Shown here piece by piece: positions 2,459-16,310 of a stretch of 18,918 bases of DNA. A program made the position numbers and the translations under genes. The notes under the pieces were generated by a model. The model did not search any database. It was not told the DNA's origin and saw only the letters and a list, made by a program, of their open reading frames with translations. The stretch comes from a virus (taxonomy: Duplodnaviria > Heunggongvirae > Uroviricota > Caudoviricetes): IMG/VR virus record IMGVR_UViG_2698536485_000019, positions 1 to 18,918 of that record; one strand, 5' to 3'. Numbering within the stretch: position 1 is the stretch's first letter; the number at the start of each line of letters is the position of its first letter.

Positions 2459-2459
2459 C

Positions 2460-2666: not shown

Positions 2667-2687
2667 GATTTACTCTCCCCCAAATAA

Positions 2688-2715
2688 AAAGGCCTGCGAT
2701 TACCAGCAGGCCTTT
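2688..2715. terminator. Perfect 10-bp stem hairpin at the 3' end of the HNH endonuclease gene (terminator-like, possibly bidirectional)
   Basis: aaaggcctgc (2688-2697) / gcaggccttt (2706-2715), 8-nt loop; T-run on the plus side (tatctgttttt) and TTATTTG on the minus side. Confidence 0.5.
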
Positions 2716-3325
2716 ATCTGTTTTTAACACGCTTTCGAGTCCTTTTAGATTTTTCCTTAAGATATTCCGCAAGTTTATCCTCATCATTATTAAATTGAGA
2801 TAAAAGCTCATGCTCGCAATTAAGTGCTTTACTCGCATAAGTTCCATATAGTTTCTTTCTTGCTAGTGCTGCTATGAATGCTGCATCTTCTTTGCTATCG
2901 AAATACCCTAACGATATTGTCTTATTTTTATAACCAACATAAGACTTCCACCTGCCAGTTGGCTTATACCAAGACACTCCAATTGCACCGGATGTGTTTA
3001 ATCTATTCCCTACAATGTTTCTTGCATTCTGCTCTTCTGTTGCCAGTCTTAGGTTTGAAATCCTATTGTCAAGTCTGTTCCCATTTACATGATCAATAAA
3101 CTTAGGAGGCCATTTTTTGTATACATAGAACCAAGCAAGTCTATGCGCCTTATACAAAACATTATTTATACTAATGCATATATAACCACCACTAACACCT
3201 CCAGCAATACTACCTTTTACTCTTACTACTGAATTTGTTTTTAGCCATTTAAATATTCCTGTTTCTGAGTCATATGATAATGTTGACAGAAGCTCATCGT
3301 GATCAATTAGTTTTTTTATTCGCAT
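2714..3325 (-). CDS. Free-standing HNH homing endonuclease with AP2-type DNA-binding domain
   Basis: 203-aa ORF; HNH motif IDHVNGNRLDNRISNLRLATEEQNARN and AP2-like segment GVSWYKPTGRWKSYVGYKNKTISLGYFDSKEDAAFIAA. The ~700-bp region is visibly AT-rich relative to its neighbours. Confidence 0.75.
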   Translation of the reverse strand: MRIKKLIDHDELLSTLSYDSETGIFKWLKTNSVVRVKGSIAGGVSGGYICISINNVLYKAHRLAWFYVYKKWPPKFIDHVNGNRLDNRISNLRLATEEQNARNIVGNRLNTSGAIGVSWYKPTGRWKSYVGYKNKTISLGYFDSKEDAAFIAALARKKLYGTYASKALNCEHELLSQFNNDEDKLAEYLKEKSKRTRKRVKNR

Positions 3326-3403
3326 AAAGAATATACTTAATAATATATACAGTAAGAACCATTAGTAACGATAACCCTGCTATTAGCTCAGTGATGTAGA
3401 TGG

Positions 3404-3673
3404 TCATTGCTTCATCTCCCTTTCCATTTCATCAATGTCAACGTCATCAGGAAGATGGGAGCAATACGCCGCTATACCATGATGATTTATCTCATACCCT
3501 TTGAACGTTACCATCTGGTGCGTAATCTCAACTTCGTTCAGGAATCCGTCATCGCATAACTGCCTGGCTATTTTCGATTTGGTCTGGATTATTGGTAGTG
3601 CCTGTTCTTTCAAAGCGCATGATATTTGTGCATCCCATGCCTTTTCGAGAATAGCTAATTGTTTTTTATTCAT
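3404..3673 (-). CDS. Hypothetical nin-region protein
   Basis: 89-aa ORF whose ATG (3673..3671) overlaps the helicase stop (ATGA); no family recognised. Confidence 0.45.
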
Positions 3674-6063
3674 ACGTCAGCCCCTTGTGCATATCGTCTG
3701 CCACGCGCAGCAGGTGCATTTGATGCTGTGCAAATCTGTCTGGCTTCATCCTGGTCACATGCAACAAAGTGTCCGTTACAGAACCGCTGGTAAACCGTAC
3801 CAAGTGAGCCAAAACGGTTTTTCGTCACGATGATTTCAGCAAATGGCGCGGCGCTACTGTTCTCGTCATATACCGCTTCCCGATAGAGCATGATGATTGA
3901 GTCTGCGTCCTGTTCAATGCTTCCTGAATCACGCAAATCTGCGTTTGTCGGGCGTTTATTTGGTCGCTTCTCAACATCGCGCGAAAGCTGACTTAGGGAG
4001 ATAACTGGCGTTTTCAGGTCTTTCGCCATCGCCTTCAGGCTTCCGGAGATGTGAGCAATTGCGAGGTCGTTGCGGTCTGCTTTCGGCTTCTCAATCAGGC
4101 CAAGATAATCCGCCATGATGAGTGAGAGGTTTGGATTTTCCTGTTTGTGCCGTTCTGCGATTGAGCGTATTTCTTCGACCGATAACCGCGAGGCATCGAC
4201 TACCCATACATCCAAATCTGCAAGCTGACTCATGCCGTTAGCAACACGTGCCCAGCCTTCGTCATCCATCGATGCAGGATTTCGCAGTACGCTAACCGAC
4301 ATCCTCCCGGCGTTGGCAATGCTTCGCTCTGCAATCTGCAATGCGCTCATTTCCATTGAGAAAATCAATACCCCGCGCCGGACGTCAGAACCAGGAATAA
4401 CACGACTTGCAACGCCTTCGGCAATCTTCAGCGCCAGTTCCGTATTGTGCGTAACGATGTAATCCGTTGTCACATAGAGATGGCTAGGATGGCTTACCAT
4501 GATGCAGAGACACTCTTCTGGCTCAACAACTTCAACCGATTTGATACCCACACCAACGTCGCCAAGCCTGTTAATCCCGAGATTTTTGCGTAAACGTGGT
4601 GAGTGAATTTGCTCTATCAAAGATGATGGCAACTTCATGCTGACCATGTGTGCATCAAGTCCGTCGTGCTTCTCTCCTTTGTACGTGTAAACTATTCCCG
4701 TCCTGCTGGATTCTTTGGCGGTTCCACCTAAAGATCTAACAAGCCTTACTAATCCTTTAGCTAATTTCTGACTGGATGAACTAAAGCGGATGCATCCGGA
4801 CTTCTCAACCCAGCCATCTGTCTCGAGAAGGCCAGTTAAAACACCGGTACGTATTTCTTTGCTAGCACTAAAAATTTCTGCTGGGATTTCCTTCTCGGAC
4901 GCACCTTTCCCGATCACCCCAATGCCACGTAGTTTGTCCAATAGTGGGTTCTTCTGGCCTTTTTGGTTGCTTATCAAATAATCATTCTCTCCTACCTTAA
5001 CCAGTCGCAATGGTGCAATTGCATCACTCATGCGGCTCAGGACATATTCTTCCGAGTTGGTGAATTTGATGCCTTTTATCAACGAACCGTCACCAAGTAG
5101 AGCCCCAATAACCCAACCATCAAGGGGAATATTTTTACCAAAGTCTCCGGTCAAGGATGGCACTCTTATTCTTCCCTGATAACGTGTTTTTTGTAGCATC
5201 CCAGCCAGCGCATCAGTATCAACAACGCGTTTACCAGTAAATCTTGATGATGAAATTTCCCATAAGTGGTTGTCGGCACATTTCACGCTACGTCCGTCTT
5301 CAAAGGTGACTAAATATGTGAATTTCTTCCCTTGTGGGAAGACGCCAATTACCTCCGAAGGAAGCCCGTCTATTGACGCGATGCGATCGCCAATTTTGAC
5401 TTCTCCGTGAGTAGTCCAGGTGCCATCTGCAAGTAAAATCCCTTCGCTTAGCGCCATTGCTTTCCCCATACCAGGACGAGCAGCGATTATCACCAGGTCT
5501 TCTGCGTTCATCCCTCCGGTGATGGCGTCAAGTTCTTCGATTCCGGTCTTCAGGGTATCTGACTCTTCTCCGTTCCTCAGACGCCTGTCAAGCGTGTCAG
5601 TGTAGTCAGTGATGATTTCCCCTAACCGTACAGGTTTAACCTCGTCACGGGGCTTTCTGATGGCTGAGAGACGTTTTACAAGTTCATCCATCGCCTGACT
5701 CGATGCGTCGATGGTTCCGCTTTGGATTGGTTCACGCATTTCATCCATGATTTCCAGCACCAGACGGCGGTGATAGTTATCCGCGACCATTCCGGCATAT
5801 CCCTTCAGGTTTGCGGCACTCGGGCAGTTTTTGCTGGTCATCAGGATTGACGTGAAATGCTCCTCTCCGCACGCCTCGGCAACCATCAGCGCGTCGATTA
5901 GGTTTCTGTTTCGCGCCTGCTTACGGATAACCTCGAAGGCTTTCCGGTAGAGCGGAATTGAAAACGCCTCCGGCTCCAGCGTTGCCAGAACGTCGCTGGC
6001 AGTTGGCGTTAATCCACCAATCAGCAGGCCACCGATAACGCTCGCTTCGATATCCTGTCTCAT
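3670..6063 (-). CDS. DnaB-family replicative helicase (P22 gp12-like) interrupted by an intein
   Basis: 797-aa ORF. N-terminal domain with ...[18 protein letters not shown]..., Walker A AARPGMGK then a ~339-aa insertion, resuming [10 protein letters not shown]... with typical DnaB C-terminal motifs. Start overlaps the O-like gene stop (ATGA). Confidence 0.85.
4444..5460 (-). mobile_element. Intein with LAGLIDADG homing-endonuclease domain inserted at the helicase P-loop (GMGK | T)
   Basis: Helicase residues 202-540. Begins [14 protein letters not shown] (Ala, not Cys/Ser), block B ...[19 protein letters not shown]-like motifs [13 protein letters not shown] and [11 protein letters not shown], block [20 protein letters not shown], block G YIVTHN followed by +1 Thr, which restores GK-T of Walker A after excision. 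Confidence 0.75.
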
Positions 6064-7007
6064 GCAATCCCCCTGTCTGCAAACTTCCCTTCCCGGACTC
6101 CCGTTAACGAGTCTTCTCTCAGCAGGTAATCAAAATCTGCCGTCCAGCCCGTGTCGTTGTCTCCGAAGTAAAACGGCTTGGCCTGATGCACAAACGCCCT
6201 GACATACGCTCTGAAACCGTCCACGTTTGGCGTTTTCAGTTGCGGGATGATTTTCTTCAGGCGGCGTTTGCGTTTCTCGTTGACCGCAACAGCATGTGGA
6301 AGTCTGTCACCGACTTCGGTGTTGTAGGCGTTCAGGAAGGATTCGTAGTCGATTCGTTCTGCCTTGCGACGTTCAGGTTTAACCTGCCCATCGCCTCCCC
6401 CATTGGGGGGTAGGGGGGTATTATTTATATTCTTGTTAATACCTTCTTGTTCATGATGTGCGGTTGTTTGTGCGGCTTCATGTGCGCTTTCATGTGCGGC
6501 ATGTTCGCTGAAATCCGCGCCATTACTGGCTTCGTCATGTGCGGCATCATGTGCGGTCGTTTGTGCGGCTTCATGTGCGGGTGAATCGTCCATTTTTTGA
6601 GCATATTCATGGTAATTTGTGATGGTAATCACACGACCTTTTTGCTTCTCTCCATCAATGGTGATCATCCCCTCTTTCACAAAAACCTGAAGCATCCGCT
6701 CAACCTGATCGCGGCTTGCTGGCTTGCCATGCCTGTCGCATAACTGAAGACCTAAATCAGCTGCTGTCACAACCAGTTGACCGGGTTGCAGATGCCATTC
6801 ATGACCTTTGAAATTCGCTTTGTATGGCTTTCTGGTGGCATTCAGGAGAAGGTTTTCCCACAGGGTGCGAAGATAAACATCTTTCGCCCATGACTGTTTC
6901 AGAATGCTCCGGTACAACGGAATGTAACCAGTTTTCTGGTTCTCCATCCTGTTGCTCCTGCGCTCGTGTGCGGCGCTGAAATCGTAGATTTTTGCTGTAT
7001 TGCTCAT
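6060..7007 (-). CDS. Replication initiator, lambda O / P22 gp18-like, with iteron-containing origin inside the gene
   Basis: 315-aa ORF starting [10 protein letters not shown]... (P22 gp18-like N-terminus, from memory); the central His/Ala-rich repetitive segment is encoded by the iteron array; directly upstream of the helicase gene. Confidence 0.75.
6418..6600. repeat. Putative replication origin: iteron array (about 7 copies of a (T/C)(A/T)TGTGCGG core at ~12-bp spacing) plus adjacent AT-rich segment
   Basis: Repeated catgtgcgg / tttgtgcgg units across 6445-6600; AT-rich stretch ggtattatttatattcttgttaatacc at 6418-6450 on the transcription-downstream side, as in lambda ori. Confidence 0.65.
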
Positions 7008-7009
7008 AA

Positions 7010-7282
7010 CTACCTGCCTTGACGAAAGACCTTAAGAACATCGTTAAACTGACTTACGGATATGTCTTCTTTGAGCAGCTTTTCCAGAAATGCGTTTGGA
7101 ATGAACGTATATCCCTCCTCTTTTGGTAGAGACGGGAGCAACGCCCTCGCCTCAGCCTTCAGAAGCTCAGTTCTGGCAACTTTCACAAAAGAGATTTGAG
7201 TTCTTTCATCAATGGAACGAAGGAAGCGCAAACGCTTAGCTTCTTTGTGTGTATCAGGTGGATTAAAGCCTTTGTTTCGCAT
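7010..7282 (-). CDS. Hypothetical small protein between cII and O
   Basis: 90-aa ORF from the internal ATG at 7282 (RBS GAGGT upstream); stop abuts the O-like start. The longer six-frame call would overlap cII. Confidence 0.5.
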   Translation of the reverse strand: MRNKGFNPPDTHKEAKRLRFLRSIDERTQISFVKVARTELLKAEARALLPSLPKEEGYTFIPNAFLEKLLKEDISVSQFNDVLKVFRQGR

Positions 7283-7304
7283 ATAATTACCTCGCTGGAT
7301 GTTG

Positions 7305-7604
7305 TTAAAATTCCATTTGTATTTGATCAGAACGCTCGGTCTTGCACACCGGGCGTTTTTTATTGGTGAGTCCATCAAGCGCATACTTAAAAGCCCTGCT
7401 AATCGGACTGATGTCTGATGCCATTCCGAAAGCACACAAGACCGAAGCAATAAACCTCCAGTCCGTTCTGCTTATCTTCGATTCATGACAGCCAATCATC
7501 TTTGCCAGACCGCGCTGGGTAAGCGTTGACAGGTTGATGAGTAAATCTGTTTCTGCGCGATCAATTTCTCGCTGTGTTAGCTTGCTGTAACTTGCTTGTG
7601 CCAT
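7305..7604 (-). CDS. cII: CII-family transcriptional activator (P22 C1-like)
   Basis: 99-aa ORF ending ...NKKRPVCKTERSDQIQMEF, like the lambda CII C-terminus ...NKKRPAATERSEQIQMEF (from memory); sits downstream of cro and nutR. Confidence 0.8.
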   Translation of the reverse strand: MAQASYSKLTQREIDRAETDLLINLSTLTQRGLAKMIGCHESKISRTDWRFIASVLCAFGMASDISPISRAFKYALDGLTNKKRPVCKTERSDQIQMEF

Positions 7605-7628
7605 TTGTTAATTTTCCTATATTGATAT

Positions 7629-7657
7629 ATAGCGGCACACCCAGTGGATTTGCCGCT
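7629..7657 (-). terminator. tR1-like hairpin between nutR and cII
   Basis: 7-bp stem agcggca / tgccgct with a 13-nt loop, followed on the minus strand by AUAUAU; weak as an intrinsic terminator, lambda tR1 is Rho-dependent. Confidence 0.3.
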
Positions 7658-7664
7658 GATGTTT

Positions 7665-7706
7665 GCTCACCCGGTTAGAGGTGAAAGGCCAGAACTGTTA
7701 AAGAGC
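7665..7706 (-). promoter_or_regulatory. nutR (boxA + boxB)
   Basis: Minus-strand boxA GCTCTTTAACA (7706..7696) and boxB hairpin TCACCTCTAACCGGGTGA (7684..7665); same boxA and loop CTAACC as the nutL copy. Confidence 0.7.
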
Positions 7707-7713
7707 AATTTAC

Positions 7714-7899
7714 TTATGCCGCTTGGCGGTAAGCACTTTCTTGATACTTCAGGGCGCCAGCTGTAACGATTTCCAATCGATAGGCGTCTTTCTCTGGGAT
7801 AACTTCTTTCCACTGAGAGACTGCTGCATCGCTAATGCCTAGTGCTTTAGCAACAGCACGCTGGGTTCCGAAGTGGTCAATAACATCTTTTTTGTACAT
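7714..7899 (-). CDS. cro: Cro repressor (P22-type)
   Basis: 61-aa translation MYKKDVIDHFGTQRAVAKALGISDAAVSQWKEVIPEKDAYRLEIVTAGALKYQ... matches P22 Cro as I recall it; divergent from the repressor gene. Confidence 0.85.
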   Translation of the reverse strand: MYKKDVIDHFGTQRAVAKALGISDAAVSQWKEVIPEKDAYRLEIVTAGALKYQESAYRQAA

Positions 7900-7913
7900 A
7901 GACTCGCTCCGAA

Positions 7914-7979
7914 ATTAAAGAACACTTAAATTATCCACCAAAGGATTCTTAAGTCAAGTTTATTTAAGATGTCTTAACT
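7914..7979. promoter_or_regulatory. OR region: three 18-bp operators (7914-7931, 7937-7954, 7962-7979) with PR and PRM
   Basis: Three sites fitting ANTNAAG-N4-CTTNANT (attaaagaacacttaaat, accaaaggattcttaagt, atttaagatgtcttaact). PR on the minus strand: -35 TTGACT (7957..7952), 17-bp spacer, -10 ATAATT (7934..7929). Confidence 0.7.
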
Positions 7980-8630
7980 ATGAATACACAACTGATGGGT
8001 GAGCGTATTCGCGCTCGCAGAAAAGAACTCAAGATTAGGCAGGCTGCCCTTGGCAAGATGGTTGGCGTGTCTAATGTTGCTATTTCCCAATGGGAGCGAT
8101 CTGAAACTGAGCCCAATGGCGAAAACCTATTGGCCTTAGCCAAGGCTTTGCAGTGCTCCCCTGATTACCTGTTGAAAGGAGAGGATAGTCTTTCAAACAT
8201 TGCCTATCACAGCAGGCATGATCCAAGAGGTTCGTATCCTCTAATTAGTTGGGTAAGCGCAGGATGTTGGATGGAAGCTGTAGAGCCATATCATAGGCGT
8301 GCAATAGATAACTGGTACGACACAACGGTAGATTGTTCTGAAGACTCTTTTTGGCTCGACGTTAAAGGTGATTCAATGACTGCCCCGGCAGGACTGAGTA
8401 TTCCTGAAGGGATGATTATTCTCGTCGACCCAGAAGTCGAACCACGTAATGGAAAGCTGGTAGTCGCCAAACTTGAAGGAGAAAACGAGGCGACATTCAA
8501 AAAGTTAGTTATTGATGCCGGTAGAAAATTCCTGAAACCACTCAATCCACAATACCCAATGATTGAAATCAATGGGAACTGTAAAATCATTGGCGTTGTC
8601 GTTGATGCCAAGCTAGCAAACCTTCCTTAA
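7980..8630 (+). CDS. cI: Prophage repressor CI (P22 c2-type, HTH + S24 LexA-like autopeptidase domain)
   Basis: 216-aa translation MNTQLMGERIRARRKELKIRQAALGKMVGVSNVAISQWERSETEPNGENLL... with C-terminal S24 motifs (GDSM, KLVVAKL); matches P22 C2 as I recall it. Confidence 0.9.
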   Translation: MNTQLMGERIRARRKELKIRQAALGKMVGVSNVAISQWERSETEPNGENLLALAKALQCSPDYLLKGEDSLSNIAYHSRHDPRGSYPLISWVSAGCWMEAVEPYHRRAIDNWYDTTVDCSEDSFWLDVKGDSMTAPAGLSIPEGMIILVDPEVEPRNGKLVVAKLEGENEATFKKLVIDAGRKFLKPLNPQYPMIEINGNCKIIGVVVDAKLANLP

Positions 8631-8652
8631 GGGGCTTTCGCCCCTTTTTTAT
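8631..8652 (+). terminator. Rho-independent terminator after the repressor gene
   Basis: aggggc-tttc-gcccct followed by tttttta immediately after the cI stop. Confidence 0.6.
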
Positions 8653-8684
8653 TTCCCGTTAAAAATCAAAGACAAACTAAATTC

Positions 8685-8738
8685 GCGCCCATAAAATTAA
8701 GTTTTCTTCAAAAATGCACTTGACCAACAAATTAAGAG
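8685..8738 (+). promoter_or_regulatory. OL operators and pL promoter
   Basis: Operator-like sites aaattaagttttcttcaa (8685-8702) and aattaagaggtcttaaat (8720-8737); -35 TTGACC (8710-8715), 17-bp spacer, -10 TAAATT (8733-8738). Confidence 0.6.
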
Positions 8739-8794
8739 GTCTTAAATTTAAGCCGTCAGCAGGAGGCTGGAAGCCAAACGGAACAGATTGGCAG

Positions 8795-8834
8795 GCTCTT
8801 TAACATCGACGAACTCTCAACCTAACCGTTGAGA
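8795..8834 (+). promoter_or_regulatory. nutL (boxA + boxB)
   Basis: boxA GCTCTTTAACA (8795-8805); boxB hairpin TCTCAAC-CTAACC-GTTGAGA (8815-8834); upstream of N. Confidence 0.7.
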
Positions 8835-8944
8835 CCAGAACTTGAGTGGTTTTGGGGATGGCGCGAATTGCAGCTGCAAGACAGCGATCGAGAAGATAAG
8901 CACCTCGACGCGTCATGCGCCAAAGCCACTTAAAGGAGACCATC

Positions 8945-9250
8945 ATGGTAACCATTGTCTGGAAAGAATCCAAAGGTACGGCAAAAAGCCGCTACAAAGC
9001 TCGCAGAGCAGAACTTATTGCCGAGCGACGCAGTAATGAAGCACTGGCGCGAAAAATTGCGCTAAAGCTCTCTGGTTGCGTCAGAGCAGACAAAGCAGCA
9101 TCACTAGGAAGCCTTTGCTGCAAGAAGAAAGAAGAAGTTGTTCGAAAAAATAGAAGTATTTATTACAAGGATTCAAACCCATTAGGAAACAAAATACATG
9201 CAGTCCAAAAAATAAAATTGTACAGTAAACTACCGTACGGTGCTTATTGA
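8945..9250 (+). CDS. N: Antiterminator N (phage-21-type arginine-rich motif) with a divergent AT-rich 3' end
   Basis: ATG at 8945 after AAGGAG; MVTIVWKESKGTAKSRYKARRAELIAERR... matches the phage 21 N ARM as I recall it; located between nutL and the pL-operon accessory genes. Confidence 0.75.
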   Translation: MVTIVWKESKGTAKSRYKARRAELIAERRSNEALARKIALKLSGCVRADKAASLGSLCCKKKEEVVRKNRSIYYKDSNPLGNKIHAVQKIKLYSKLPYGAY

Positions 9251-9252
9251 GT

Positions 9253-9591
9253 ATGCTTATGGTGAAAAAGACTATTTATGTTAATCCTGACCGCGGACAA
9301 AACAGAAAAGTATCTGATAGAGGTCTTACATCTCGAGACAGGAGGAGAATAGCGAGATGGGAAAAGAGGATAGCATATGCATTAAAAAACGGTGTAACAC
9401 CTGGATTTAATGCTATAGATGACGGTCCTGAATATAAGATTAATGAAGACCCAATGGACAAAGTTGACAAAGCATTAGCAACACCATTTCCTCGCGATGT
9501 CGAAAAAATTGAAGATGAAAAATATGAGGATGTAATGCACAGAGTTGTTAATCACGCTCACCAACGAAATCCAAATAAAAAATGGTCATAG
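9253..9591 (+). CDS. Hypothetical protein (basic N-terminal half, acidic C-terminal half); accessory moron
   Basis: ORF in an AT-rich segment; first ATG 3 nt after the N stop (start uncertain, no clear SD); followed by its own terminator. No family recognised. Confidence 0.45.
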   Translation: MLMVKKTIYVNPDRGQNRKVSDRGLTSRDRRRIARWEKRIAYALKNGVTPGFNAIDDGPEYKINEDPMDKVDKALATPFPRDVEKIEDEKYEDVMHRVVNHAHQRNPNKKWS

Positions 9592-9592
9592 C

Positions 9593-9613
9593 CCACTTCG
9601 GTGGTTTTTTTAT
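9593..9613 (+). terminator. Rho-independent terminator (short stem, UUCG loop, U-run)
   Basis: cccac-ttcg-gtgg followed by ttttttta directly after the 9253-9591 ORF. Confidence 0.5.
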
Positions 9614-9620
9614 TGGCTGA

Positions 9621-9716
9621 ACTAACCGAATTTATTACAGCAAGCCACGCAGTGAAATGGGTGTGACTTGTGTTGGTCGCCAGAAAATGAAATTAGGCAG
9701 CAAACCACTTATTTGA
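9621..9716 (+). pseudogene. Displaced 3' remnant of an N gene (encodes ...NRIYYSKPRSEMGVTCVGRQKMKLGSKPLI-stop)
   Basis: Short open frame with no start codon; it parallels the C-terminus of the intact N gene 400 bp upstream (RSIYY...QKIKLYSKLP) and, as far as I recall it, the phage 21 N C-terminus. Confidence 0.55.
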
Positions 9717-9727
9717 GAGGAATTAAT

Positions 9728-10351
9728 ATGTCATCAATCCGCTTAACTACGAGAATGAAAGAGGAAATCGCTCGTAACGCTTTAATTAAGTCCGGGGTGT
9801 TCACTGAACTTGAAGAAGTAACAAAGTTAAAGAACCAGCTTGCACTTGACGCCAGAGTTATTGCGTTTGGCGGTAAAAAGAAAACTGAGGAAGTGGATCA
9901 GTTATCATCCAAGTTGGTAGCTATAAGTGAAGAACTTGGAAAGATGGGATGTTCATTTTACTCATACGATGTTAGTTCTACTTCAATTTATCTGACTGTA
10001 TCTGGCAGAAGGGTTGGATGGCATTCATATGGGGAAGACGGCAACGGCAAAGATATATTGCTCCCTACTCCGATCAAAGATAAATGCATGTTTGACGCAG
10101 AACACGAAATAACAAAAAGGTTTGATGAAATCTGCGCATTGCAACAAAAACTTGAAGCCAAGAAAAAGGATATCGAATCAAATGTATGGGCTGCTTTGAA
10201 CTCAGTCACAACAGTTAAGCGACTTATTGAAGTTTGGCCTGAAAGCAAAGAATTGCTACCAAAAGAAGCAGATAAAGCAAGTACAGCACTTCCTGCTTTA
10301 CGGGTAGAAGATTTGAATAAGATGATTGGACTTCCTTCCGAGGCCGCATAG
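9728..10351 (+). CDS. Hypothetical soluble protein, 207 aa (accessory gene in the N-cIII slot)
   Basis: ATG at 9728 with GAGAGG RBS at 9715-9720; coherent ORF with no hydrophobic segments; own terminator at the stop. No family recognised. Confidence 0.6.
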   Translation: MSSIRLTTRMKEEIARNALIKSGVFTELEEVTKLKNQLALDARVIAFGGKKKTEEVDQLSSKLVAISEELGKMGCSFYSYDVSSTSIYLTVSGRRVGWHSYGEDGNGKDILLPTPIKDKCMFDAEHEITKRFDEICALQQKLEAKKKDIESNVWAALNSVTTVKRLIEVWPESKELLPKEADKASTALPALRVEDLNKMIGLPSEAA

Positions 10352-10366
10352 TCGGCCTTTATTTTT
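10341..10366 (+). terminator. Rho-independent terminator
   Basis: aggccg-catagt-cggcct followed by ttattttt, overlapping the stop codon of the 9728-10351 ORF. Confidence 0.6.
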
Positions 10367-10485
10367 GGCATAAACAACAGAATAAATACTGCACTGTGTA
10401 TTCATTCCAACGAGTGAATACACGGAGCAATGTCGCTCGTAACTAAACAGGAGCCGACTTGTTCTGATTATTGGAAATCTTCTTT

Positions 10486-10512
10486 GCCCTCCAATGTGAG
10501 GGCGATTTTTTA
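10486..10512 (+). terminator. Rho-independent terminator within the noncoding gap upstream of ea10
   Basis: gccctc-caatgt-gagggc followed by gatttttta. Confidence 0.6.
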
Positions 10513-10531
10513 TCTGTGAGGATATGAACAG

Positions 10532-10900
10532 ATGTCAAACATCAAAAAATACATCATTGATTACGACTGGAAAGCATCAATAGAAATTGAAATCGACCAT
10601 GACGTAATGACAGAGGAAAAACTTCACCAGATTAATAATTTCTGGTCAGACTCTGAACACCGACTCAATAAACACGGCTCTGTATTAAATGCTGTATTAA
10701 TCATGCTGGCGCAACATGCTCTGCTTATAGCAATTTCAAGCGACTTAAATGCATATGGTGTTGTGTGTGAGTTCGACTGGAATGATGGAAATGGTCAGGA
10801 AGGATGGCCTCCAATGGATGGTAGCGAAGGAATAAGAATTACCGATATCGATACATCAGGAATATTTGATTCAGATGATATGACTATCAAAGCCGCCTGA
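10532..10900 (+). CDS. Ea10-like protein (lambda ea10/ssb position), function unknown
   Basis: 122-aa ORF immediately upstream of cIII, the position and length of lambda ea10 as I recall; sequence identity not verified. Confidence 0.55.
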   Translation: MSNIKKYIIDYDWKASIEIEIDHDVMTEEKLHQINNFWSDSEHRLNKHGSVLNAVLIMLAQHALLIAISSDLNAYGVVCEFDWNDGNGQEGWPPMDGSEGIRITDIDTSGIFDSDDMTIKAA

Positions 10901-10972
10901 GCGCGGCGTTACCGCATACCAATAACGCTTCACTCGAGGCGTTTTTCGTTATGTATAAATAAGGAGCACACC

Positions 10973-11113
10973 ATGCAATATGCCATTGCAGGGTGGCCTG
11001 TTGCTGGCTGCCCTTCCGAATCTTTACTTGAGCGAATCACCCGTAAATTACGTGACGGATGGAAACGCCTTATCGACATACTTAATCAGCCAGGAGTTCC
11101 AAAAAATGGATAA
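10973..11113 (+). CDS. cIII: CIII (inhibitor of FtsH-mediated CII degradation)
   Basis: 46-aa ORF (below the six-frame track cutoff) after AAGGAG: MQYAIAGWPVAGCPSESLLERITRKLRDGWKRLIDILNQPGVPKNG, near-identical to lambda CIII as I recall it. Confidence 0.8.
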   Translation: MQYAIAGWPVAGCPSESLLERITRKLRDGWKRLIDILNQPGVPKNG

Positions 11114-11219
11114 AACACTTATGGCTATCCAGACTAAATTCACTATCGCCACTTTTATTGGCGATGAAAAGATGTTTCGTGAAGCCGTAGAAGCCTACAG
11201 AAAATGGAGGTCAAAATGA
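11106..11219 (+). CDS. kil: Kil (host cell-division inhibitor)
   Basis: 37-aa ORF MDKTLMAIQTKFTIATFIGDEKMFREAVEAYRKWRSK overlapping the cIII stop; resembles lambda Kil (from memory). Confidence 0.7.
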   Translation: MDKTLMAIQTKFTIATFIGDEKMFREAVEAYRKWRSK

Positions 11220-11404
11220 TTCCGGTAGAACTGGCGAAAACCCCAGAGTTAAGTCGATTAAAAAGAGAGTATCACATTGCTGAGGCTCGTTACTGGCGTA
11301 AAGCGGGAGATAAATCAAAGAAACAACTTTGCTTATGGCAGGCACAAAGAGAGCGCATGAATGAGCGCGAATTTCTTTCCTCCCCATCCGAATTACCATT
11401 CTGA
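11216..11404 (+). CDS. Hypothetical small basic protein (62 aa)
   Basis: ATG at 11216 overlapping the kil stop (ATGA), GGAGG RBS at 11205-11209; occupies the position lambda gam would take. Confidence 0.45.
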   Translation: MIPVELAKTPELSRLKREYHIAEARYWRKAGDKSKKQLCLWQAQRERMNEREFLSSPSELPF

Positions 11405-11412
11405 GGTGAATT

Positions 11413-12069
11413 ATGGGTACTGCGACATTAATACTCGGTGAGTCTGGCACCGGAAAATCAACCAGTTTAAGAAACTTACCACCAGAAAAAACATTAATCA
11501 TACAGTGCATAAACAAACCGCTACCATTCCCATCAAGTGATTGGGTTAAAATAAGCAAGGAAAACAATAACGGGAACATATACAGAACAGATAATACTGA
11601 AAATATTGTAAGGGCACTAATTAATGCTCCGCATGAAATTGTAGTTATTGATGATTATCAGGCTGTGATGGTTAACGAACTAATGGGTAAATGCAATGAG
11701 AGAGGATATGACAAATTTACCTCGATAGGGAAAAACGCATGGGATGTGTTCAGGGCTGCTGGTGAAGGTGCAGACACTCGGAGAGTTTATATTCTGGCAC
11801 ACACGCAAACTGATGATTTTGGCTATACACGAATGAAAACCGTCGGAAAACTAGTCGATTCGACACTTGTTCCTGAAGGTTATTTCACTATCGTGTTAAG
11901 AACTCACGTACAGAACGGAAAATACTCATTTTCCACCCAGACAAACGGGAGTGATTGTTGTAAAAGTCCGGTTGGGATGTTTGATAGTCAGTTTATTGAT
12001 AATGATTTGTACGAAGTAGATAAAAAAATATGCTCTTACTATGGGTTTGAAAAAAATGAGACGTCTTGA
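11413..12069 (+). CDS. Sak4-like RecA-core ATPase (phage single-strand annealing recombinase family)
   Basis: 218-aa ORF with N-terminal Walker A GESGTGKST and Walker B-like VVIDDY; size and position (replacing exo/bet) fit Sak4-type recombinases of P22-like phages. Confidence 0.6.
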   Translation: MGTATLILGESGTGKSTSLRNLPPEKTLIIQCINKPLPFPSSDWVKISKENNNGNIYRTDNTENIVRALINAPHEIVVIDDYQAVMVNELMGKCNERGYDKFTSIGKNAWDVFRAAGEGADTRRVYILAHTQTDDFGYTRMKTVGKLVDSTLVPEGYFTIVLRTHVQNGKYSFSTQTNGSDCCKSPVGMFDSQFIDNDLYEVDKKICSYYGFEKNETS

Positions 12070-12661
12070 GGTATCCGGCGAGAGATTTGGCAATTTAGTT
12101 GTTATTGGTGATGCAGGAATGCGTGGTACTCAAAGGTTGGTAAACTGTGTGTGTGACTGCGGAGTAGTTTGTGTTAAACAGCTTGGCAACCTCCGTTCAG
12201 GGCACACAAGAAGTTGTGGTTGCTCACGCTCATCTACAACAAAAGCAAGAAAAAACAAACATGGCATGTATGGAACACCAACATACAAGTCATGGTCTTC
12301 AATGTTAACAAGATGCTTCAATGAAAGAAATAGTAAATACAAACACTATGGAGGAAGAGGAATAACTGTTTGTGAACGGTGGCTGAACTTTAAATTATTT
12401 TTCGCTGATATGGGAAAAAGACCTGACGGAACTACATTGGGAAGAATTGATAACAATGGTAATTACGAACCATCAAATTGCGAATGGCAGAAAAGTATCG
12501 AGCAAGCAAGAAATAAGAGTAATACCGTATTATTTAAATTCAATGGAGTGCTGGCAACAATTTCAGAGCACTGCGAAAAAACTGGATTAAACCCAAGCAC
12601 GGTAAGAAGCAGGATTTACACATATCATTGGTCTGTAGACAAGGCCTTATCAAAAGGATAA
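12041..12661 (+). CDS. Cys-rich HNH-family (variant) nuclease-like protein
   Basis: N-terminal Cys cluster CVCDCG...SCGC; C-terminal RIDNNGNYEPSNCEWQKSIEQARN parallels the HNH motif IDHVNGN...NLRLATEEQNARN of the 2714-3325 endonuclease, with the first His replaced by Asn. Start ambiguous (ATG at 12041 or 12056). Confidence 0.5.
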   Translation: MGLKKMRRLEVSGERFGNLVVIGDAGMRGTQRLVNCVCDCGVVCVKQLGNLRSGHTRSCGCSRSSTTKARKNKHGMYGTPTYKSWSSMLTRCFNERNSKYKHYGGRGITVCERWLNFKLFFADMGKRPDGTTLGRIDNNGNYEPSNCEWQKSIEQARNKSNTVLFKFNGVLATISEHCEKTGLNPSTVRSRIYTYHWSVDKALSKG

Positions 12662-12665
12662 AAGC

Positions 12666-13253
12666 ATGAGCAACGTAATTTTTACTTATAACGAAGAAGC
12701 AGCACTGACCGCAGGGCAAGGTGGTTTTATTAACGAAACTGGCGCTCACATAATTACCATTACTGAAGCAGAACTCAAGCAATCAGAAAAAGGAGCCAAA
12801 TTTATTGAGTTTTCTGGAGAATCCGACGACGGACGTAAAATCCAGTATCTTAGCGTCTGTGTTCAGAAAAATGACGGCACGGAAAACAAATTTGGCGCAA
12901 ATGTCGTTCACGCCATGATGGGGTGTGCCGGGATTGGACAATTAACGCAACATATGGTTTCCGCCAGTAAATTTGTTGCACCTGAATTTCATGGAAAGAA
13001 AATCGGGTTAGTGCTCCAGAAAGTATTAACCACAAACAAAAAGACTGGCGCAGACAGCTACCAGATGGAAATACGCATCCCGTTTATTGCACAAACAGGT
13101 CAAACCCTTAAAGAAAAGGCAGAAGGCAAGCAACCAGAAACTATCGCCAACATGGTTGCCAGCCTCAAAGATAAAGACAATCGCTCTAAAAACGTAAGCC
13201 ATAATCATGCAGATGATTATGGTTACAGCCAGAACGATTACCCTCCTTTCTGA
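12666..13253 (+). CDS. SSB-like protein (probable partner of Sak4) with acidic C-terminal tail
   Basis: 195-aa ORF ending ...HADDYGYSQNDYPPF, reminiscent of the SSB C-terminal tail ...DDDIPF; adjacent to the Sak4-like gene. Confidence 0.5.
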   Translation: MSNVIFTYNEEAALTAGQGGFINETGAHIITITEAELKQSEKGAKFIEFSGESDDGRKIQYLSVCVQKNDGTENKFGANVVHAMMGCAGIGQLTQHMVSASKFVAPEFHGKKIGLVLQKVLTTNKKTGADSYQMEIRIPFIAQTGQTLKEKAEGKQPETIANMVASLKDKDNRSKNVSHNHADDYGYSQNDYPPF

Positions 13254-13276
13254 TTACTGAAAATAAGGCTCCCATT

Positions 13277-13573
13277 ATGCCAGCGCCTCTGTATGGTGCG
13301 GATGACCCGCGCAACTGCTCCGGTAGCTCCAAGGCGGAGGTGCTGGAAAATATCAAAAACAATTTCGACGCGTTTCTTGCTCTGACACCAGAAACAAAAG
13401 CAGAACGGATGTACCGACGCGATATACAACTCGCGCTAAAACAGGAGAAGGACCGAACAAACGAAACAGCAATGAGACCGTTGCGAAAAGCGACAATAGA
13501 CAAATTCCCTGAATATATCGACCCGCGCCTGCGTAATTACCGCTCACGCTATGGCGCTATCAGTAATGACTGA
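13277..13573 (+). CDS. Hypothetical protein
   Basis: 98-aa ORF with AAGG upstream; same strand and tight spacing within the pL operon. Confidence 0.5.
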   Translation: MPAPLYGADDPRNCSGSSKAEVLENIKNNFDAFLALTPETKAERMYRRDIQLALKQEKDRTNETAMRPLRKATIDKFPEYIDPRLRNYRSRYGAISND

Positions 13574-13583
13574 GGAATTTACC

Positions 13584-13874
13584 ATGAAAACAATGAAGCT
13601 AAACATCGACCTCGGAAAATACGTTATTACCGGAACCAAACACGACCTGATTCTTAGTGAAAGAGGAATTATCAAAGAAGGCGAGAATGCAGGGAAAGAA
13701 ACACTAAGCCGTATCGGTTATTACAGCAAGTTTGAGCATCTGGTTAAAGAATTATGCAACCGTGAAATCATGTTATCTCAGGCGCAGACGCTACAGGATA
13801 TTCAGCAACATATCGAGAATTTAGGTGTGTCACTTAGCATGGCTATTGACCAGTTCGTGGAGAGTAAATCATGA
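13584..13874 (+). CDS. Hypothetical protein
   Basis: ATG at 13584 preceded by TGAGGAA; 96 aa; stop overlaps the next start (ATGA). Confidence 0.5.
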
Positions 13875-14038
13875 GAGGACTTGCATACAATCCCGGCATT
13901 CTTCCAGCAGAAATGATTATTCGCCAACGCGTAAAGCCAATGCCATCGAGAGAGGAATTGCTTAAGAGAAATTCTTTTCCTTCAGTGAATCAAAACAAAT
14001 ATCTGAATGCGATGTGGCGTAAAGGAGGCAAGCAGTGA
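13871..14038 (+). CDS. Hypothetical small protein (55 aa)
   Basis: Below the six-frame cutoff; ATG overlaps the previous stop and its stop overlaps the GTG start of the next gene (translational coupling pattern). Confidence 0.35.
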
Positions 14039-14493
14039 GCGAAATTAACTATAAAGAACTGCGCGAGGCGGCGAAACAGGCAACGCAAGATGAATGGGTA
14101 GCATATATTTTGCCGGGCCATAACGGCATTTATCCTGCGCGCACGTCTGAGGGTAGGCATTGCGGATACTTTATTGACTGGCCTGGTACTGATGGACAGA
14201 GGAACGCTAGTGCCAATGCCCGTTATATCGCGGCTATCCCACCAAAAGTTGCGCTGGACCTCCTAGGCGAAATTAAGCGCCTGGAGGACAAAAATATTGA
14301 TGCCATGTGCCAAATTGCAGAGCTGGAGAGCAATCGCGCGGCGCTGGCGGCGGAGCATGGTATTCAGATTGCAATAAATGAACTGCTTGCTCTGGCCCCG
14401 CGTCTGGATAAACGAGCGGTGGATGCACTCTCTGTGGCTGTGGAGCACCTGTGTAAACTGATTAAGAAGGAGGCAGTCAGTGAGCAAAATTAA
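14035..14493 (+). CDS. Ead/Ea22-like protein
   Basis: GTG start; N-terminus [16 protein letters not shown]...W and ...[16 protein letters not shown] is paralogous to the next gene; the family name is from memory. Confidence 0.55.
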
Positions 14494-15154
14494 TTACCAG
14501 GCACTGCGTGAGGCGGCAGAGAAAGCAACGTGGGGAGACTGGGACTCATATAAACCACACCGTGGCGCACGTGGTTATGAGGTCCGACTAAGTAGTCAGG
14601 CCATTGCGCAACACGTCCTGAAAAACAACGCTGAATTTATTGCTGCCTTTAATCCAAAGATTGCTTTGGCACTACTGGATGAACGGGAAAGAAACCAGCA
14701 ATACATCAAACGCCGCGACCAGGAGAACGAGGATATTGCGCTAACGGTAGGGAAGCTGCGTGTTGAGCTGGAAGGCAAAGACAGCAAAATAGCCAATCTT
14801 ACCGCCGAACGCGATGCTCTTCGTGAAGGTGAGATGGGCGACGCTAGGCATAGCAACACACGGGCCGCAGCTGATATCTACTTCCAACTGGTCGAGGAGT
14901 GCGAAATTCCTGCTGGCCGTTCTCTGGTCGAGTACGTTGACGATATGCGCGAGAAGCTGGAAGCCGCAGAGAAGCGCATTGCTGAGCTGGAGTTGCGGGA
15001 GGTTGTGCTTCCGCAATGCTATAGCATGTTGCATCGCGTCGATTTTGACGAGCCTTACCACACTGAAATGGTTTACAGGCAGCATCAGGTTCTTGAGGCA
15101 CTGCACAACGCTGGAATAAACGTCACCGAAGCAGGTAAAGGAGAGGCATCATGA
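14480..15154 (+). CDS. Ead/Ea22-like protein with coiled-coil C-terminal region
   Basis: GTG start after AAGGAGG; N-terminus [20 protein letters not shown] and ...AEFIAAFNPKIALALL matches the upstream paralog. Confidence 0.55.
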   Translation: MSKINYQALREAAEKATWGDWDSYKPHRGARGYEVRLSSQAIAQHVLKNNAEFIAAFNPKIALALLDERERNQQYIKRRDQENEDIALTVGKLRVELEGKDSKIANLTAERDALREGEMGDARHSNTRAAADIYFQLVEECEIPAGRSLVEYVDDMREKLEAAEKRIAELELREVVLPQCYSMLHRVDFDEPYHTEMVYRQHQVLEALHNAGINVTEAGKGEAS

Positions 15155-15678
15155 GCACTATCACAAGAGAATGGCTGCAGCAGACTATCAACGATTATGA
15201 AAGCGTTCGTGATGAGCTTCCTTTCGGGCTTGATGATTACCAGGGGAATATCCTGGCTGCCCTGCGTATCGCACTGGCATCGCTGGAAGCAGAGCCGGTG
15301 GCGTGGAAGGTAACATTCACGCAAATTGACCGTGAATATAACACGTTCACTGGTATGTATTCTGACAAAGCAGAAGTCGAACGGTGGGTGCGTCTGCATA
15401 AAGCATGTAATTTTCGGGCAGATATAACACCGCTTTATACCGCCAAGCCAGTGCCGGTAACTCCGGATGGTTGGATAAGCTGTAGTGAGCGAATGCCAGA
15501 AATTAGACAAACAGTTATTGGATGGAATGAATATGCAGTTAGACAATGCGTATATACAAGGAATGAATATGCCAAGACACAGAAAGGCAGAGAGCCAAGG
15601 TTTGAAACCTTAACTGGTATATGGCATGGAGTAACCCACTGGATGCCGCTACCAGAACCGCCGCAGGAGGTTAATTGA
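15151..15678 (+). CDS. DUF551-like prophage protein
   Basis: 175-aa ORF with C-terminal W-x-SCSERMPE...GVTHWMPLPEPP, resembling the DUF551 motif common in lambdoid prophages (from memory); RBS AAGGAGAGG. Confidence 0.55.
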   Translation: MSTITREWLQQTINDYESVRDELPFGLDDYQGNILAALRIALASLEAEPVAWKVTFTQIDREYNTFTGMYSDKAEVERWVRLHKACNFRADITPLYTAKPVPVTPDGWISCSERMPEIRQTVIGWNEYAVRQCVYTRNEYAKTQKGREPRFETLTGIWHGVTHWMPLPEPPQEVN

Positions 15679-15962
15679 TGGACTCCTTCGCGAAATATAC
15701 GATTATTGACTGGATAGCATTCCTTCAGGTTTTGCTCATCTGGTTTTATTTGGCTTATAGGAGTGGACAGTGGATTGTCAGTGTAGCCTGTAGCAAGGGA
15801 TGGCGTTGGTGGAACCGAAAGAATAAAAAAGCACTGGCCTTGGATTCATTTTACGAAGCATTCAATCTTAACAGCCTTCAGCCTGGTTCTGTCGTTGTAG
15901 TCACCACTCAAAGCGGCATGACGATACAAATTCACAAGCCAAAGGAGGAAGGTCGTGGCTAA
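15678..15962 (+). CDS. Small membrane protein
   Basis: ATG at 15678 after AGGAGG; hydrophobic segment YTIIDWIAFLQVLLIWFYLAY. Confidence 0.45.
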   Translation: MDSFAKYTIIDWIAFLQVLLIWFYLAYRSGQWIVSVACSKGWRWWNRKNKKALALDSFYEAFNLNSLQPGSVVVVTTQSGMTIQIHKPKEEGRG

Positions 15963-16239
15963 CCTGCAACTTGCAGTCAAAGGTGAATACTTCGATGCCA
16001 TGATTCGCGGAGAGAAAACAGAAGAGTATCGCCTGTGTAATGACTACTGGAATAAGCGAATTATGTTCCGGGAGTATGACCGCCTGATTATCACAAAGGG
16101 ATATCCGAAGCGCGACGACTCCAGCCGCAGAATTAACGTCCCGTATGACGGATATAAAATCAAGACAATCACACATACACACTTCGGAGATAAACCGGTA
16201 AAGGTGTTCGCGATAAAGGTGAATATCGGCAATGAATAA
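15955..16239 (+). CDS. ASCH/PUA-like domain protein (tentative)
   Basis: GTG start after AAGGAGG; N-terminal pattern LQLAVKGEYFDAMIRGEKTEEYR resembles ASCH-fold proteins; weak assignment. Confidence 0.4.
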   Translation: MANLQLAVKGEYFDAMIRGEKTEEYRLCNDYWNKRIMFREYDRLIITKGYPKRDDSSRRINVPYDGYKIKTITHTHFGDKPVKVFAIKVNIGNE

Positions 16240-16274
16240 CAATCCTCGCACTCGCGGGGATTTCTTTTATCTGA

Positions 16275-16298: not shown

Positions 16299-16310
16299 AT
16301 GGAGATGATT

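Follow-up and report, generated by a model that had tools for sequence, protein, structure and literature searches.

Evidence for an HK022-type nun cassette within a phage 21-type N gene, with the original end of N displaced downstream

Nun is among the best-studied phage exclusion proteins and blocks superinfecting lambda. In the HK97/HK022 genome comparison of Juhala et al. from 2000, a moron is reportedly an extra gene that has its own promoter and terminator and an atypical composition. The nun locus of HK022 (X16093 and AF069308) has no N gene, and put RNA is used instead. Phage 21 (OL657228) differs in the opposite way, as it has a contiguous 99-aa N gene and no nun, and thus represents the empty site. 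Phages that have both genes are also represented in GenBank; the layout and the genes described below were already known from the records of mEp235, mEpX1, PA28, and Stx1a-converting phages. Our literature searches yielded no paper on a duplicated N 3' end around nun or on the combination of N and Nun in the mEp phages, and neither of the two is described in PMC12315714, PMC12945033, or PMC6391919.

The DNA analyzed here, referred to as the window, is the whole 18,918-nucleotide stretch of a Caudoviricetes virus record (IMG/VR record IMGVR_UViG_2698536485_000019, positions 1 to 18,918). All features described below are on the plus strand. Positions 8640 to 9798 of the window were 98.5% identical to mEp235 (JQ182731 / NC_019708), with point differences only, and the repressor, nutL, 101-aa N, Nun, and downstream gene were the same; N and Nun are annotated in mEp235. 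In mEpX1 and PA28, the N tail, nun, the terminator, and a remnant of N behind it were arranged as in the window. The mEpX1 record, in which N and Nun are annotated as well, differed in its immunity region and in having a ...KQRRKSIPAYYD-type remnant, and the PA28-type phages differed by a 1-nt deletion, with an N that was 11 codons longer and overlapped the nun start. Kapi1 and the Stx1a-converting phages were also among the closest known N-Nun regions. The remnant is annotated in none of the mEp235, mEpX1, Kapi1, PA28, and Stx1a-converting phage records. Based on the comparisons presented here, we are highly confident that the nun cassette known from HK022-type phages occupies positions 9139 to 9623, within an N gene of the phage 21 type, and that the 3' end of the phage 21 gene (N21) was displaced and persists as the remnant.

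A global alignment with phage 21 placed 485 bp of the window (9139 to 9623, containing a replacement N tail, the putative nun promoter PNun, nun, and a terminator) opposite 13 bp of N21 (CGAGCGTAAACAG), which indicated that the difference was a discrete indel. The two phages matched from 8640 to 9136 with 12 mismatches in 497 positions, a region that included pL, boxA, boxB, and nearly identical N codons 1 to 65, and the match resumed at 9624 with 3 mismatches in 93 positions. Similar results were observed with the nun-less relatives lambda imm21, DE3, and phiv205-1, which, like phage 21, aligned to the window in two pieces. An earlier reading of this DNA (the sequence-only reading) had proposed that a duplicated N 3' end brackets an AT-rich insertion, and that a cassette acquired within N had swapped the C terminus and brought in an extra gene. 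Every one of these elements was found at the coordinates given here and below, the relatives lacking the insertion defined its limits as that reading had anticipated, and the discrete indel, the common right junction, and the neutral downstream copy bore out the acquisition within N. The predicted shift in local GC content was seen too. Specifically, the N tail (9137 to 9250; 30.7% GC) and nun (37.5%) formed a low-GC stretch between the 5' part of N (47.9%) and the remnant (41.9%), in keeping with the earlier view that intact N ends in divergent AT-rich DNA, and the cassette as a whole had 36.3% GC versus 45.7% for the whole window. The description of the remnant as GC-normal was only roughly right because the downstream genes also have about 40 to 41% GC.

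The two junctions could be placed with different precision. On the left, the junction was confined to about 9106 to 9139 and no finer, since N alleles are similar there. On the right, the junction was common to 43 of 43 distinct N-type loci that carry nun; the remnant began 28 to 38 nt past the nun stop codon, at N21 nt 202 to 215. This identity in all N-type nun-carrying phages surveyed points to one old event, and the insertion event is widespread and not specific to the window. The HK022 fragment starts at about codon 64, close to where divergence from phage 21 sets in (about codon 66), and this had suggested a discrete cassette end, but we regard such an end as unproven because N alleles are conserved up to that point and the transitions in PA28 and locus L069 are slightly different (VERK versus VVRK). 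Chance similarity and an assembly artefact were rejected as causes of the arrangement.

The N gene of the window spanned positions 8945 to 9250 (101 aa), counted from the phage 21 start MVTIVW at 8945; the open reading frame listed at 8915 to 9250 was the same frame with an upstream ATG. This frame is annotated as N in mEp235, and it matched the N-like profile PHROG 271 (E=4.6e-31), although its Pfam N_peptide score of 18.4 was under the 27.9 cut-off. Codons 1 to about 65 (8945 to about 9138) were of the phage 21 type, with codons 1 to 57 identical to phage 21 N and only R58C and A62K differing up to codon 65. The AT-rich "C2" tail, which extended from about codon 66 to codon 101 (9139 to 9250) and ended in ...KKKEEVVRKNRSIYYKDSNPLGNKIHAVQKIKLYSKLPYGAY, replaced the last 34 codons of the phage 21 gene. 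The tail lacked the 21-type C-terminal domain and belonged to another class, so the protein was a hybrid N and not an orthologue of phage 21 N throughout. The two tails were nevertheless homologous as proteins (18 of 37 residues identical, or 49%; E=9e-7 for a single BLASTP comparison), whereas the DNA-level match was weak, with a local score that was reached in 15 of 2000 shuffles.

The tail class was also found elsewhere without nun. A GC-rich form, the NPLGNKIHAVQ-type tail, was present in Salmonella N gene P0096, and Cronobacter N genes had a related tail. The AT-rich tail therefore belonged to a genuine N C-terminal class and was not merely a divergent N end. P0096, which has a C1/C2/C1 mosaic tail and no nun, was considered as a scar of cassette excision; this idea was rejected, as the C2-like segment of P0096 has a high GC content and did not arise from the AT-rich cassette. 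The hybrid N is probably active, since the same N is present in the plaque-forming isolates mEp235 and mEpX1.

The sequences upstream of N were likewise of the phage 21 type. The nutL site (8795 to 8834) comprised boxA (GCTCTTTA, 8795 to 8802) and a boxB hairpin (TCTCAACCTAACCGTTGAGA, 8815 to 8834) with a predicted 7-bp stem, and both were identical to the boxA-L and nutL features annotated in OL657228. A promoter scan identified a pL-like site, TTGACC-17-TAAATT, at 8720 to 8748; the pL transcription start in the phage 21 record is equivalent to about position 8755 of the window. A CI/C2-type prophage repressor gene (imm21/P22-c2-like; Pfam HTH_3 and Peptidase_S24) was located at 7980 to 8630, in the position of the phage 21 and mEp235 repressors.

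Downstream of the hybrid N gene, an open reading frame at 9247/9253 to 9591 (114/112 aa) encodes the HK022 Nun protein, the transcription arrest factor that excludes lambda. Annotated start options were the ATG at 9253 (112 aa) and the ATG at 9259 (110 aa), and the stop codon was TAG at 9589 to 9591. The product matched PDB 6ALG chain N at 108 of 109 residues (E=2.5e-71), HK022 Nun at 99.1% in a tblastn search, and PHROG 5632 (E=4.5e-71); a domain search of Pfam returned no family for Nun. Residues 22 to 47 corresponded to the Nun peptide (26 residues) in 1HJI, the NMR structure of Nun with boxB (E=5.6e-11), and the N-terminal arginine-rich motif, for which a role in binding lambda boxB RNA is stated (PMC5386594), was present. 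The C terminus (...HRVVNHAHQRNPNKKWS) was identical to that of 6ALG_N and retained H98, K106, K107, and W108, the residues (in Nun numbering) named as functionally important for arrest (PMC5386594). The sequence-only reading had seen a 112-aa frame followed by a terminator between the two N tails and had called the gene a moron. That an extra gene with its own terminator is present held up, but the gene is not anonymous. As for the attributes of a moron, nun was absent from phage 21, lambda imm21, and DE3, had a lower GC content, and was followed by a terminator, and it had a promoter by annotation only.

The terminator was predicted at 9593 to 9611 from the sequence, its fold, and an alignment of 49 downstream variants. 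It consisted of CCAC-UUCG-GUGG followed by U7 (T7 in the DNA). Through a single G>T change, its stem had 4 pairs, one fewer than the CCCAC/GUGGG stem of most relatives, and it was missed by a terminator scan with a 5-pair threshold. Because the stem has only four pairs, the efficiency of the predicted terminator is uncertain.

The putative PNun lies within the N tail at 9198 to 9226. Its -35 element, ATGCAG (9198 to 9203), overlaps N codons H85 to V87, and its -10 element, TACAGT (9221 to 9226), overlaps codons Y93 and S94. This position was taken from the GenBank record of O276 (MH547045), which contains the HK022 immunity region and in which both elements are annotated; the window was identical over that stretch, and a simple sigma-70 consensus scan did not call PNun. 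In HK022, HK75, and O276, an AT-rich N-tail fragment was likewise found upstream of nun, and 126 of 129 nt in a region of about 115 bp that includes the annotated hexamers were identical to the window. The terminator of HK022 was homologous as well. The presence of the annotated nun promoter within the AT-rich tail of HK022-type phages explains why the tail travels together with nun. Since HK022 has no N and uses put RNA, the N-tail sequence that precedes its nun is orphaned, and the mutated stop codon of this sequence (TGA to TGG) is consistent with its being non-coding there. The HK022 locus also differed from the window downstream, where it was replaced after about 15 nt, contained no 21-type remnant, and had IS903 nearby. 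PNun is reportedly the subject of a paper by King, Madsen and Weisberg (2000; J Bacteriol 182:456).

The remnant was located behind the terminator. The frame at 9621 to 9716, which has no start codon, reads TNRIYYSKPRSEMGVTCVGRQKMKLGSKPLI followed by a stop codon, and positions 9624 to 9716 were identical to phage 21 N codons 70 to 99 plus the stop codon at 90 of 93 nt. This identity indicated that the downstream N copy was no chance match, and it agreed with the earlier proposal that the start-less frame is a homologous N C terminus. Variants private to remnants were mostly nonsynonymous (13 nonsynonymous to 4 synonymous) compared to those in 24 intact N tails (0 to 6; Fisher p=0.002), and roughly half of the remnants, but no intact copy, had L, I, or K in place of R71. 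The ratio suggested that the remnant is a decaying, neutrally drifting fragment. The ribosome-binding site of an Nmad5-family gene (9728 to 10351; Pfam Nmad5, E=2.7e-71), the first gene of the downstream early-left module, begins directly after the remnant stop codon.

According to our preferred reading, the cassette consists of a replacement N C-terminal segment (codons about 66 to 101), nun, and a short intrinsic terminator. The replacement tail keeps the N frame open and would hold a constitutive PNun in its last 15 or so codons, and the original N21 3' end (codons 70 to 99) was shifted 485 bp downstream, where it is untranslated and drifts neutrally. In the lysogen, the repressor would shut off pL, and nun would probably be expressed on its own from the putative PNun, the transcript being ended by the predicted terminator. 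The arginine-rich motif of Nun would then bind the lambda-type boxB RNA of a superinfecting lambda, RNA polymerase would be arrested, and lambda-type phages would be excluded, whereas phages of another nut/N specificity would not be. Because the phage's own boxB is of the 21 type, Nun would not be expected to attack the phage's own transcripts; the 21-type nutL of the prophage is consistent with self-immunity to Nun. During lytic growth, the pL transcript would contain the 21-type nutL. The hybrid N, whose arginine-rich motif is of the 21 type, would modify the polymerase, and the modified polymerase would read past the nun terminator into the early-left genes. Regarding its history, one ancient event probably brought together an N allele that carried nun and an N21 allele, with an in-frame left join within the conserved center of N and an illegitimate right join at about N21 codon 69/70, and later lambdoid recombination would have shuffled the surroundings.

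Two homologous N tails in the same orientation, with short common strings such as ATTTATTAC at their starts, might also be left by a local tandem duplication of the N 3' end, after which the upstream copy diverged and nun was inserted between the copies without import of a foreign tail. We consider this very improbable because the upstream tail resembles an independent C-terminal class, seen in Salmonella P0096 and in related form in Cronobacter, far more than it resembles the 21-type tail, its composition fits nun and not N, and the tail-plus-nun block is found in HK022 and HK75 without the N 5' part or a 21-type remnant. The reverse history, in which the nun arrangement is ancestral and phage 21-type N became contiguous by precise loss of the cassette, could draw on the direct orientation of the flanking tails, which could support a deletion, and on a nun homologue that adjoins N in a distant Hafnia phage. 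However, recombination between the tails would yield a chimeric C2/C1 tail, and the phage 21 tail is purely of the 21 type, including codons 66 to 69 (ERKQ), which are absent from the remnant. Cronobacter also has N genes with 21-type tails and no cassette, and the GC content of the cassette is foreign to its surroundings. This history seems extremely improbable, and the missing codons and the pure tail argue for an insertion into an N21-type gene, not a deletion in phage 21.

A different question is whether the remnant has been kept for a function, as a regulatory RNA or DNA element, as a signal for expression of the following gene, or as a selected homology arm for transfer of the cassette among N21-type phages. 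None of the 43 distinct remnants had a frameshift or premature stop codon, and the remnant was 99% identical across cassette lineages in which nun differed by 5% and the N tail by 10% (L069 versus the window). Its allelic forms matched those of intact N tails (...KMKLGSKPLI, ...KQRGKSIPAYYD, and ...PLYEG), and locus L072, which encodes a 67%-identical Nun homologue, also had an N21-like remnant behind the terminator. A simpler explanation of this similarity is that recombination with the intact N genes of other lambdoid prophages continues; such recombination also swaps the downstream module (17 clusters among the relatives), and a homology arm requires no selection on the fragment. In addition, the private substitutions mostly changed amino acids, unlike those in intact copies, nun was found without a remnant in HK022, HK75, and locus L071, and folding of the remnant RNA gave no signal beyond shuffles (z=0.03), so a structured RNA was dropped as a candidate. 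A retained function is thus unlikely, and we favor a displaced N21 end that decays without selection.

The nun gene was found in 221 of 5,426 complete E. coli genomes (about 4%). One cassette cluster was seen with at least 8 immunity clusters and with 17 downstream clusters, and ordinary lambdoid recombination has shuffled the mosaic around the cassette. Distant nun homologues occupied other contexts: behind a lambda-type N and another open reading frame (L072), behind a put site (L075), and immediately downstream of a P22-type N (the Hafnia phage). Given these contexts, the order of events proposed above for the cassette is tentative.

The nun cassette shares with other lambdoid morons a promoter (by annotation), a terminator, a GC content below that of its flanks, and absence from close relatives, and it would also resemble them in being expressed from the repressed prophage for the benefit of the host or prophage. 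Unlike them, it is located inside a gene and not between genes, supplies a substitute 3' end, and has its promoter embedded in coding sequence. Integrating elements at the 3' ends of tRNA genes carry a replacement 3' end. By analogy only, the nun cassette is like these elements in that the target is kept whole by a copy of its end carried by the element, and the old end is left as a downstream remnant. The cassette differs in having no integrase or att site, its joins look like the products of homologous and illegitimate recombination, and its replacement end is only about 49% identical at the protein level.

As a tentative extension of these comparisons, the cassette could be an insertion that is "self-complementing" and, having N homology on both sides, spreads by homologous recombination, and the N-less, put-dependent state of HK022 could derive from an N-bearing ancestor. 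Bordered by the conserved N center on its left side and by the displaced N tail on its right side, the cassette could enter any phage 21-family N gene by a double crossover and leave N active. The nun promoter would have evolved within the coding sequence of the substitute N C terminus, and the orphan N tail upstream of HK022 nun would be a fossil of the N-bearing ancestor. This idea was stated in none of the papers that we found, and older HK022 reviews may mention it.

Because GenBank already contains these genes in this order and Nun is well studied, the window adds no new biology; what it shows is familiar biology that has left a tidy evolutionary trace. There is a consequence for annotation. 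In most sampled records among the 221 E. coli genomes, nun is labeled "hypothetical protein," and the hybrid N is often labeled "regulator" or "hypothetical protein"; the remnant can mislead gene callers. For the lambdoid phages, the locus is a clean natural case of a moron inside an essential regulatory gene, surviving via a spare gene end that doubles as a promoter, and it provides a fossil record that ties the N-less HK022 to N-type ancestors.

The window was a lambdoid immunity region written with the leftward operon forward. It contained cII (7305-7604, minus strand), a P22-type cro gene (7714-7899, minus strand), a CI/C2-type repressor gene (7980-8630, plus strand), a pL-like promoter (8720-8748), and a nutL site whose boxA (8795-8802) and boxB hairpin (8815-8834) were both identical to the annotated phage 21 elements. 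These were followed by the antiterminator gene N (8945-9250; 101 aa), which began with the phage 21 N sequence MVTIVWKESKG..., a 112-aa open reading frame (ORF; 9253-9591), a predicted terminator consisting of a small hairpin and a U7 run (9593-9611), and a start-less N-like frame (9621-9716; translation, TNRIYYSKPRSEMGVTCVGRQKMKLGSKPLI*). The first early-left genes past this frame were an Nmad5-family gene (nucleotide modification associated domain 5, E=2.7e-71; 9728-10351) and a gene for a DUF2528 protein (10532-10900); the corresponding module varied among nun-carrying relatives, forming 17 clusters. A gene for a 797-aa DnaB-type replicative helicase (3670-6063, minus strand) was apparently split by an intein, with DnaB N- and C-terminal domains flanking matches to Hom_end_hint, Hom_end, and LAGLIDADG_3 at about residues 209 to 454. 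This helicase of a lambdoid prophage replication module, with its apparent intein, may merit separate study.

A sequence-only reading had described N, the ORF, the hairpin, and the start-less frame accurately and had taken the last of these to be a second N C-terminus. The alignments bore this out: 90 of 93 nt were identical to codons 70 to 99 and the stop codon of phage 21 N (N21). The two N tails of the window shared 18 of 37 residues (E=9e-7 in a single BLASTP comparison), and their DNA similarity was weak, as the observed local score was reached by 15 of 2000 shuffles. In a global alignment, phage 21 matched the window to 9138 and resumed at 9624; 13 bp of phage 21 (CGAGCGTAAACAG, N21 codons 66 to 69) were replaced by 485 bp (9139-9623). 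The indel was discrete, because the insertion-free relatives phage 21, lambda imm21, DE3, and phiv205-1 all matched in two pieces. The left join was placed within 9106-9139 and no finer, since the N alleles were too alike there. Local GC content was 47.9% in the 5' part of N, 30.7% in the replacement tail, 37.5% in the ORF, 41.9% in the displaced N21 3' end (the remnant, 9624-9716), and 45.7% in the window. The parsimonious direction is insertion into an N21-type gene. Derivation of phage 21 by deletion between the two tails was ruled out: a tail of mixed type would result, and codons 66 to 69, which phage 21 has kept, are absent from the remnant.

The cargo had been read as a moron without a name, but it is a known gene. 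The ORF product was 99.1% identical to HK022 Nun (tblastn), matched 108 of 109 residues of PDB 6ALG chain N, contained the 1HJI arginine-rich boxB-binding peptide and the C-terminal ...NHAHQRNPNKKWS, and matched PHROG 5632 ("Nun-like transcription termination factor"). These matches identify the 9253-9591 ORF as Nun of phage HK022. The arginine-rich motif of Nun binds lambda boxB RNA, and the protein arrests RNA polymerase that is transcribing lambda templates; lambda is thereby excluded by HK022 lysogens (PMC5386594). The nun terminator of the window had a G-to-T change (GGTGGT instead of GGTGGG), which left a stem of 4 pairs (CCAC/GUGG, with a UUCG loop and U7) versus 5 in most relatives; the shortened stem might allow more frequent readthrough of transcripts from the nun promoter, PNun. 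In the E. coli RefSeq genomes, the hybrid N (21-type head and AT-rich tail) was labelled "regulator" or "hypothetical protein," and nun was labelled "hypothetical protein" in almost all sampled nun-carrying genomes, a shortfall in annotation given how well this exclusion gene is characterised.

Phages HK022, HK75, and O276 rely on put RNA and therefore lack an N gene. DNA corresponding to window positions ~9130-9258 nevertheless lay immediately 5' of their nun genes (126 of 129 nt identical) as an orphan N fragment, in which the N stop codon had become TGG in HK022. In the O276 record (HK022 immunity region), the nun promoter is annotated inside this fragment, and the window carried identical hexamers: the -35 element ATGCAG at 9198-9203 (N codons H85-V87) and the -10 element TACAGT at 9221-9226 (N codons Y93-S94). 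King, Madsen, and Weisberg (2000) is reportedly the source for this promoter. We regard PNun as putatively active in the window because its position comes from the O276 annotation and was not called there by a simple consensus promoter scan. An inverted repeat (GTACAGTAAACTACCGTAC, 9220-9238) that was flagged by a terminator scan on the minus strand overlapped the annotated -10 element, possibly by chance.

The N21-family proteins recovered with the hybrid N were mosaics, in which one of a few arginine-rich heads was joined through a conserved centre (LARKIALKLSGCVRADKAASLGSL) to a tail of one of several classes. A GC-rich version of the NPLGNKIHAVQ-type tail was encoded by a Salmonella N gene that was not followed by nun, and Cronobacter N genes without nun carried a related tail. 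These occurrences mark the AT-rich tail as a genuine N domain, and the PNun hexamers fell in codons that were changed relative to the GC-rich homologous tail. The product of this Salmonella gene, N protein P0096 of a Salmonella Anatum prophage (locus L159, 2501-2797), had a three-part tail in the order 21-type NRIYYR, GC-rich DVNPLGNKIHAVQRMRL, and 21-type SSKPLI, a pattern that indicates recombination within the last 30 N codons.

With Nun as the query, we surveyed 69 IMG/VR loci and reference phages. Every N-type nun-carrying locus had a 21-type remnant (43 distinct sequences after de-duplication), and in all 43 it started 28 to 38 nt past the nun stop codon, at N21 nt 202 to 215, which points to the same right junction throughout. 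This junction was common to cassette lineages whose nun genes differed by 5% and whose tails differed by 10%, including L069 and L073 (loci with a different arginine-rich head) and the PA28/Stx1a phages. The immunity regions accompanying one cassette cluster fell into at least 8 clusters, its N heads were of several kinds, and 17 different modules lay downstream; remnants and intact N tails had allelic forms in common (...KMKLGSKPLI, ...KQRGKSIPAYYD, and ...PLYEG). These observations are consistent with a single old insertion, after which ordinary lambdoid recombination acted within and near the remnant. Among 5,426 complete E. coli genomes, 221 carried nun, and 188 covered the nun-terminator-remnant junction at 80% or more; the closest match to the whole region was 99.7% identical.

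The remnant had no start codon, was positioned behind a terminator, and showed no folding advantage as RNA over shuffled sequence (z=0.03). Over codons 70 to 90, we compared the 43 distinct remnants with 24 distinct intact tails. Remnant-private variants were 13 nonsynonymous to 4 synonymous, versus 0 to 6 for intact-private variants (Fisher p=0.002; the counts are small and were classed by distinct minor codons rather than by a full site-count model). About half of the remnants had L, I, or K in place of the conserved R71, a replacement seen in no intact copy. The remnant thus drifts neutrally. None of the 43 contained a frameshift or premature stop, and this open frame and the likeness to intact tails are best explained by recent exchange with intact N, not by selection.

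More distant relatives show that the wider history of nun is not simple. In the Hafnia phage Pocitis76 (L008, 1240-1767), a P22-type N was directly followed by a Nun-like gene (41% identical), which hints that the adjacency is old. Locus L075 (1746-2340) had HK022-like putL sequence directly upstream of a 58%-identical Nun-like gene. In locus L072 (1057-2500), a lambda-type N and then a 147-aa ORF preceded a Nun-like gene (67% identical), after which came a homologous terminator and finally an N21-like remnant (KQPGERGITCSGRQKMKGRSIPLI*). In the PA28/Stx1a-type phages (L004, 1689-2027; L062-L067), a 1-nt deletion near the N end shifted the frame, giving a 112-aa N that extended 11 codons into the start of nun (...PPYGLIEYAYGEKDYLC).

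In a lysogen, pL would be repressed and a short nun transcript would run from PNun to the terminator at 9593-9611, and Nun would arrest polymerase on superinfecting phages with lambda-type nut sites. During lytic growth, the pL transcript would carry the 21-type nutL, and the hybrid N, with its 21-type head, would render polymerase resistant to termination, so that the nun terminator would be read through. The phage's own transcripts would be spared by Nun because their boxB is 21-type. The hybrid N is likely functional, since the identical N is encoded by mEp235 and mEpX1, both of them viable phage isolates.

The nun-in-N element was already known: mEp235, whose record annotates N next to Nun, is 98.5% identical over the region, and mEpX1, Kapi1, PA28, and Stx1a phages have the same architecture. 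In the literature searched, we found no explicit statement that two N 3' ends bracket the cassette or that the upstream one houses PNun, and no statement that the HK022 orphan fragment may be a fossil of an N-bearing ancestor; older HK022 reviews outside that literature may already have noted these points. The two-tail bracketing, the putative promoter within N, and the possible HK022 fossil make up a small, neat evolutionary footnote.
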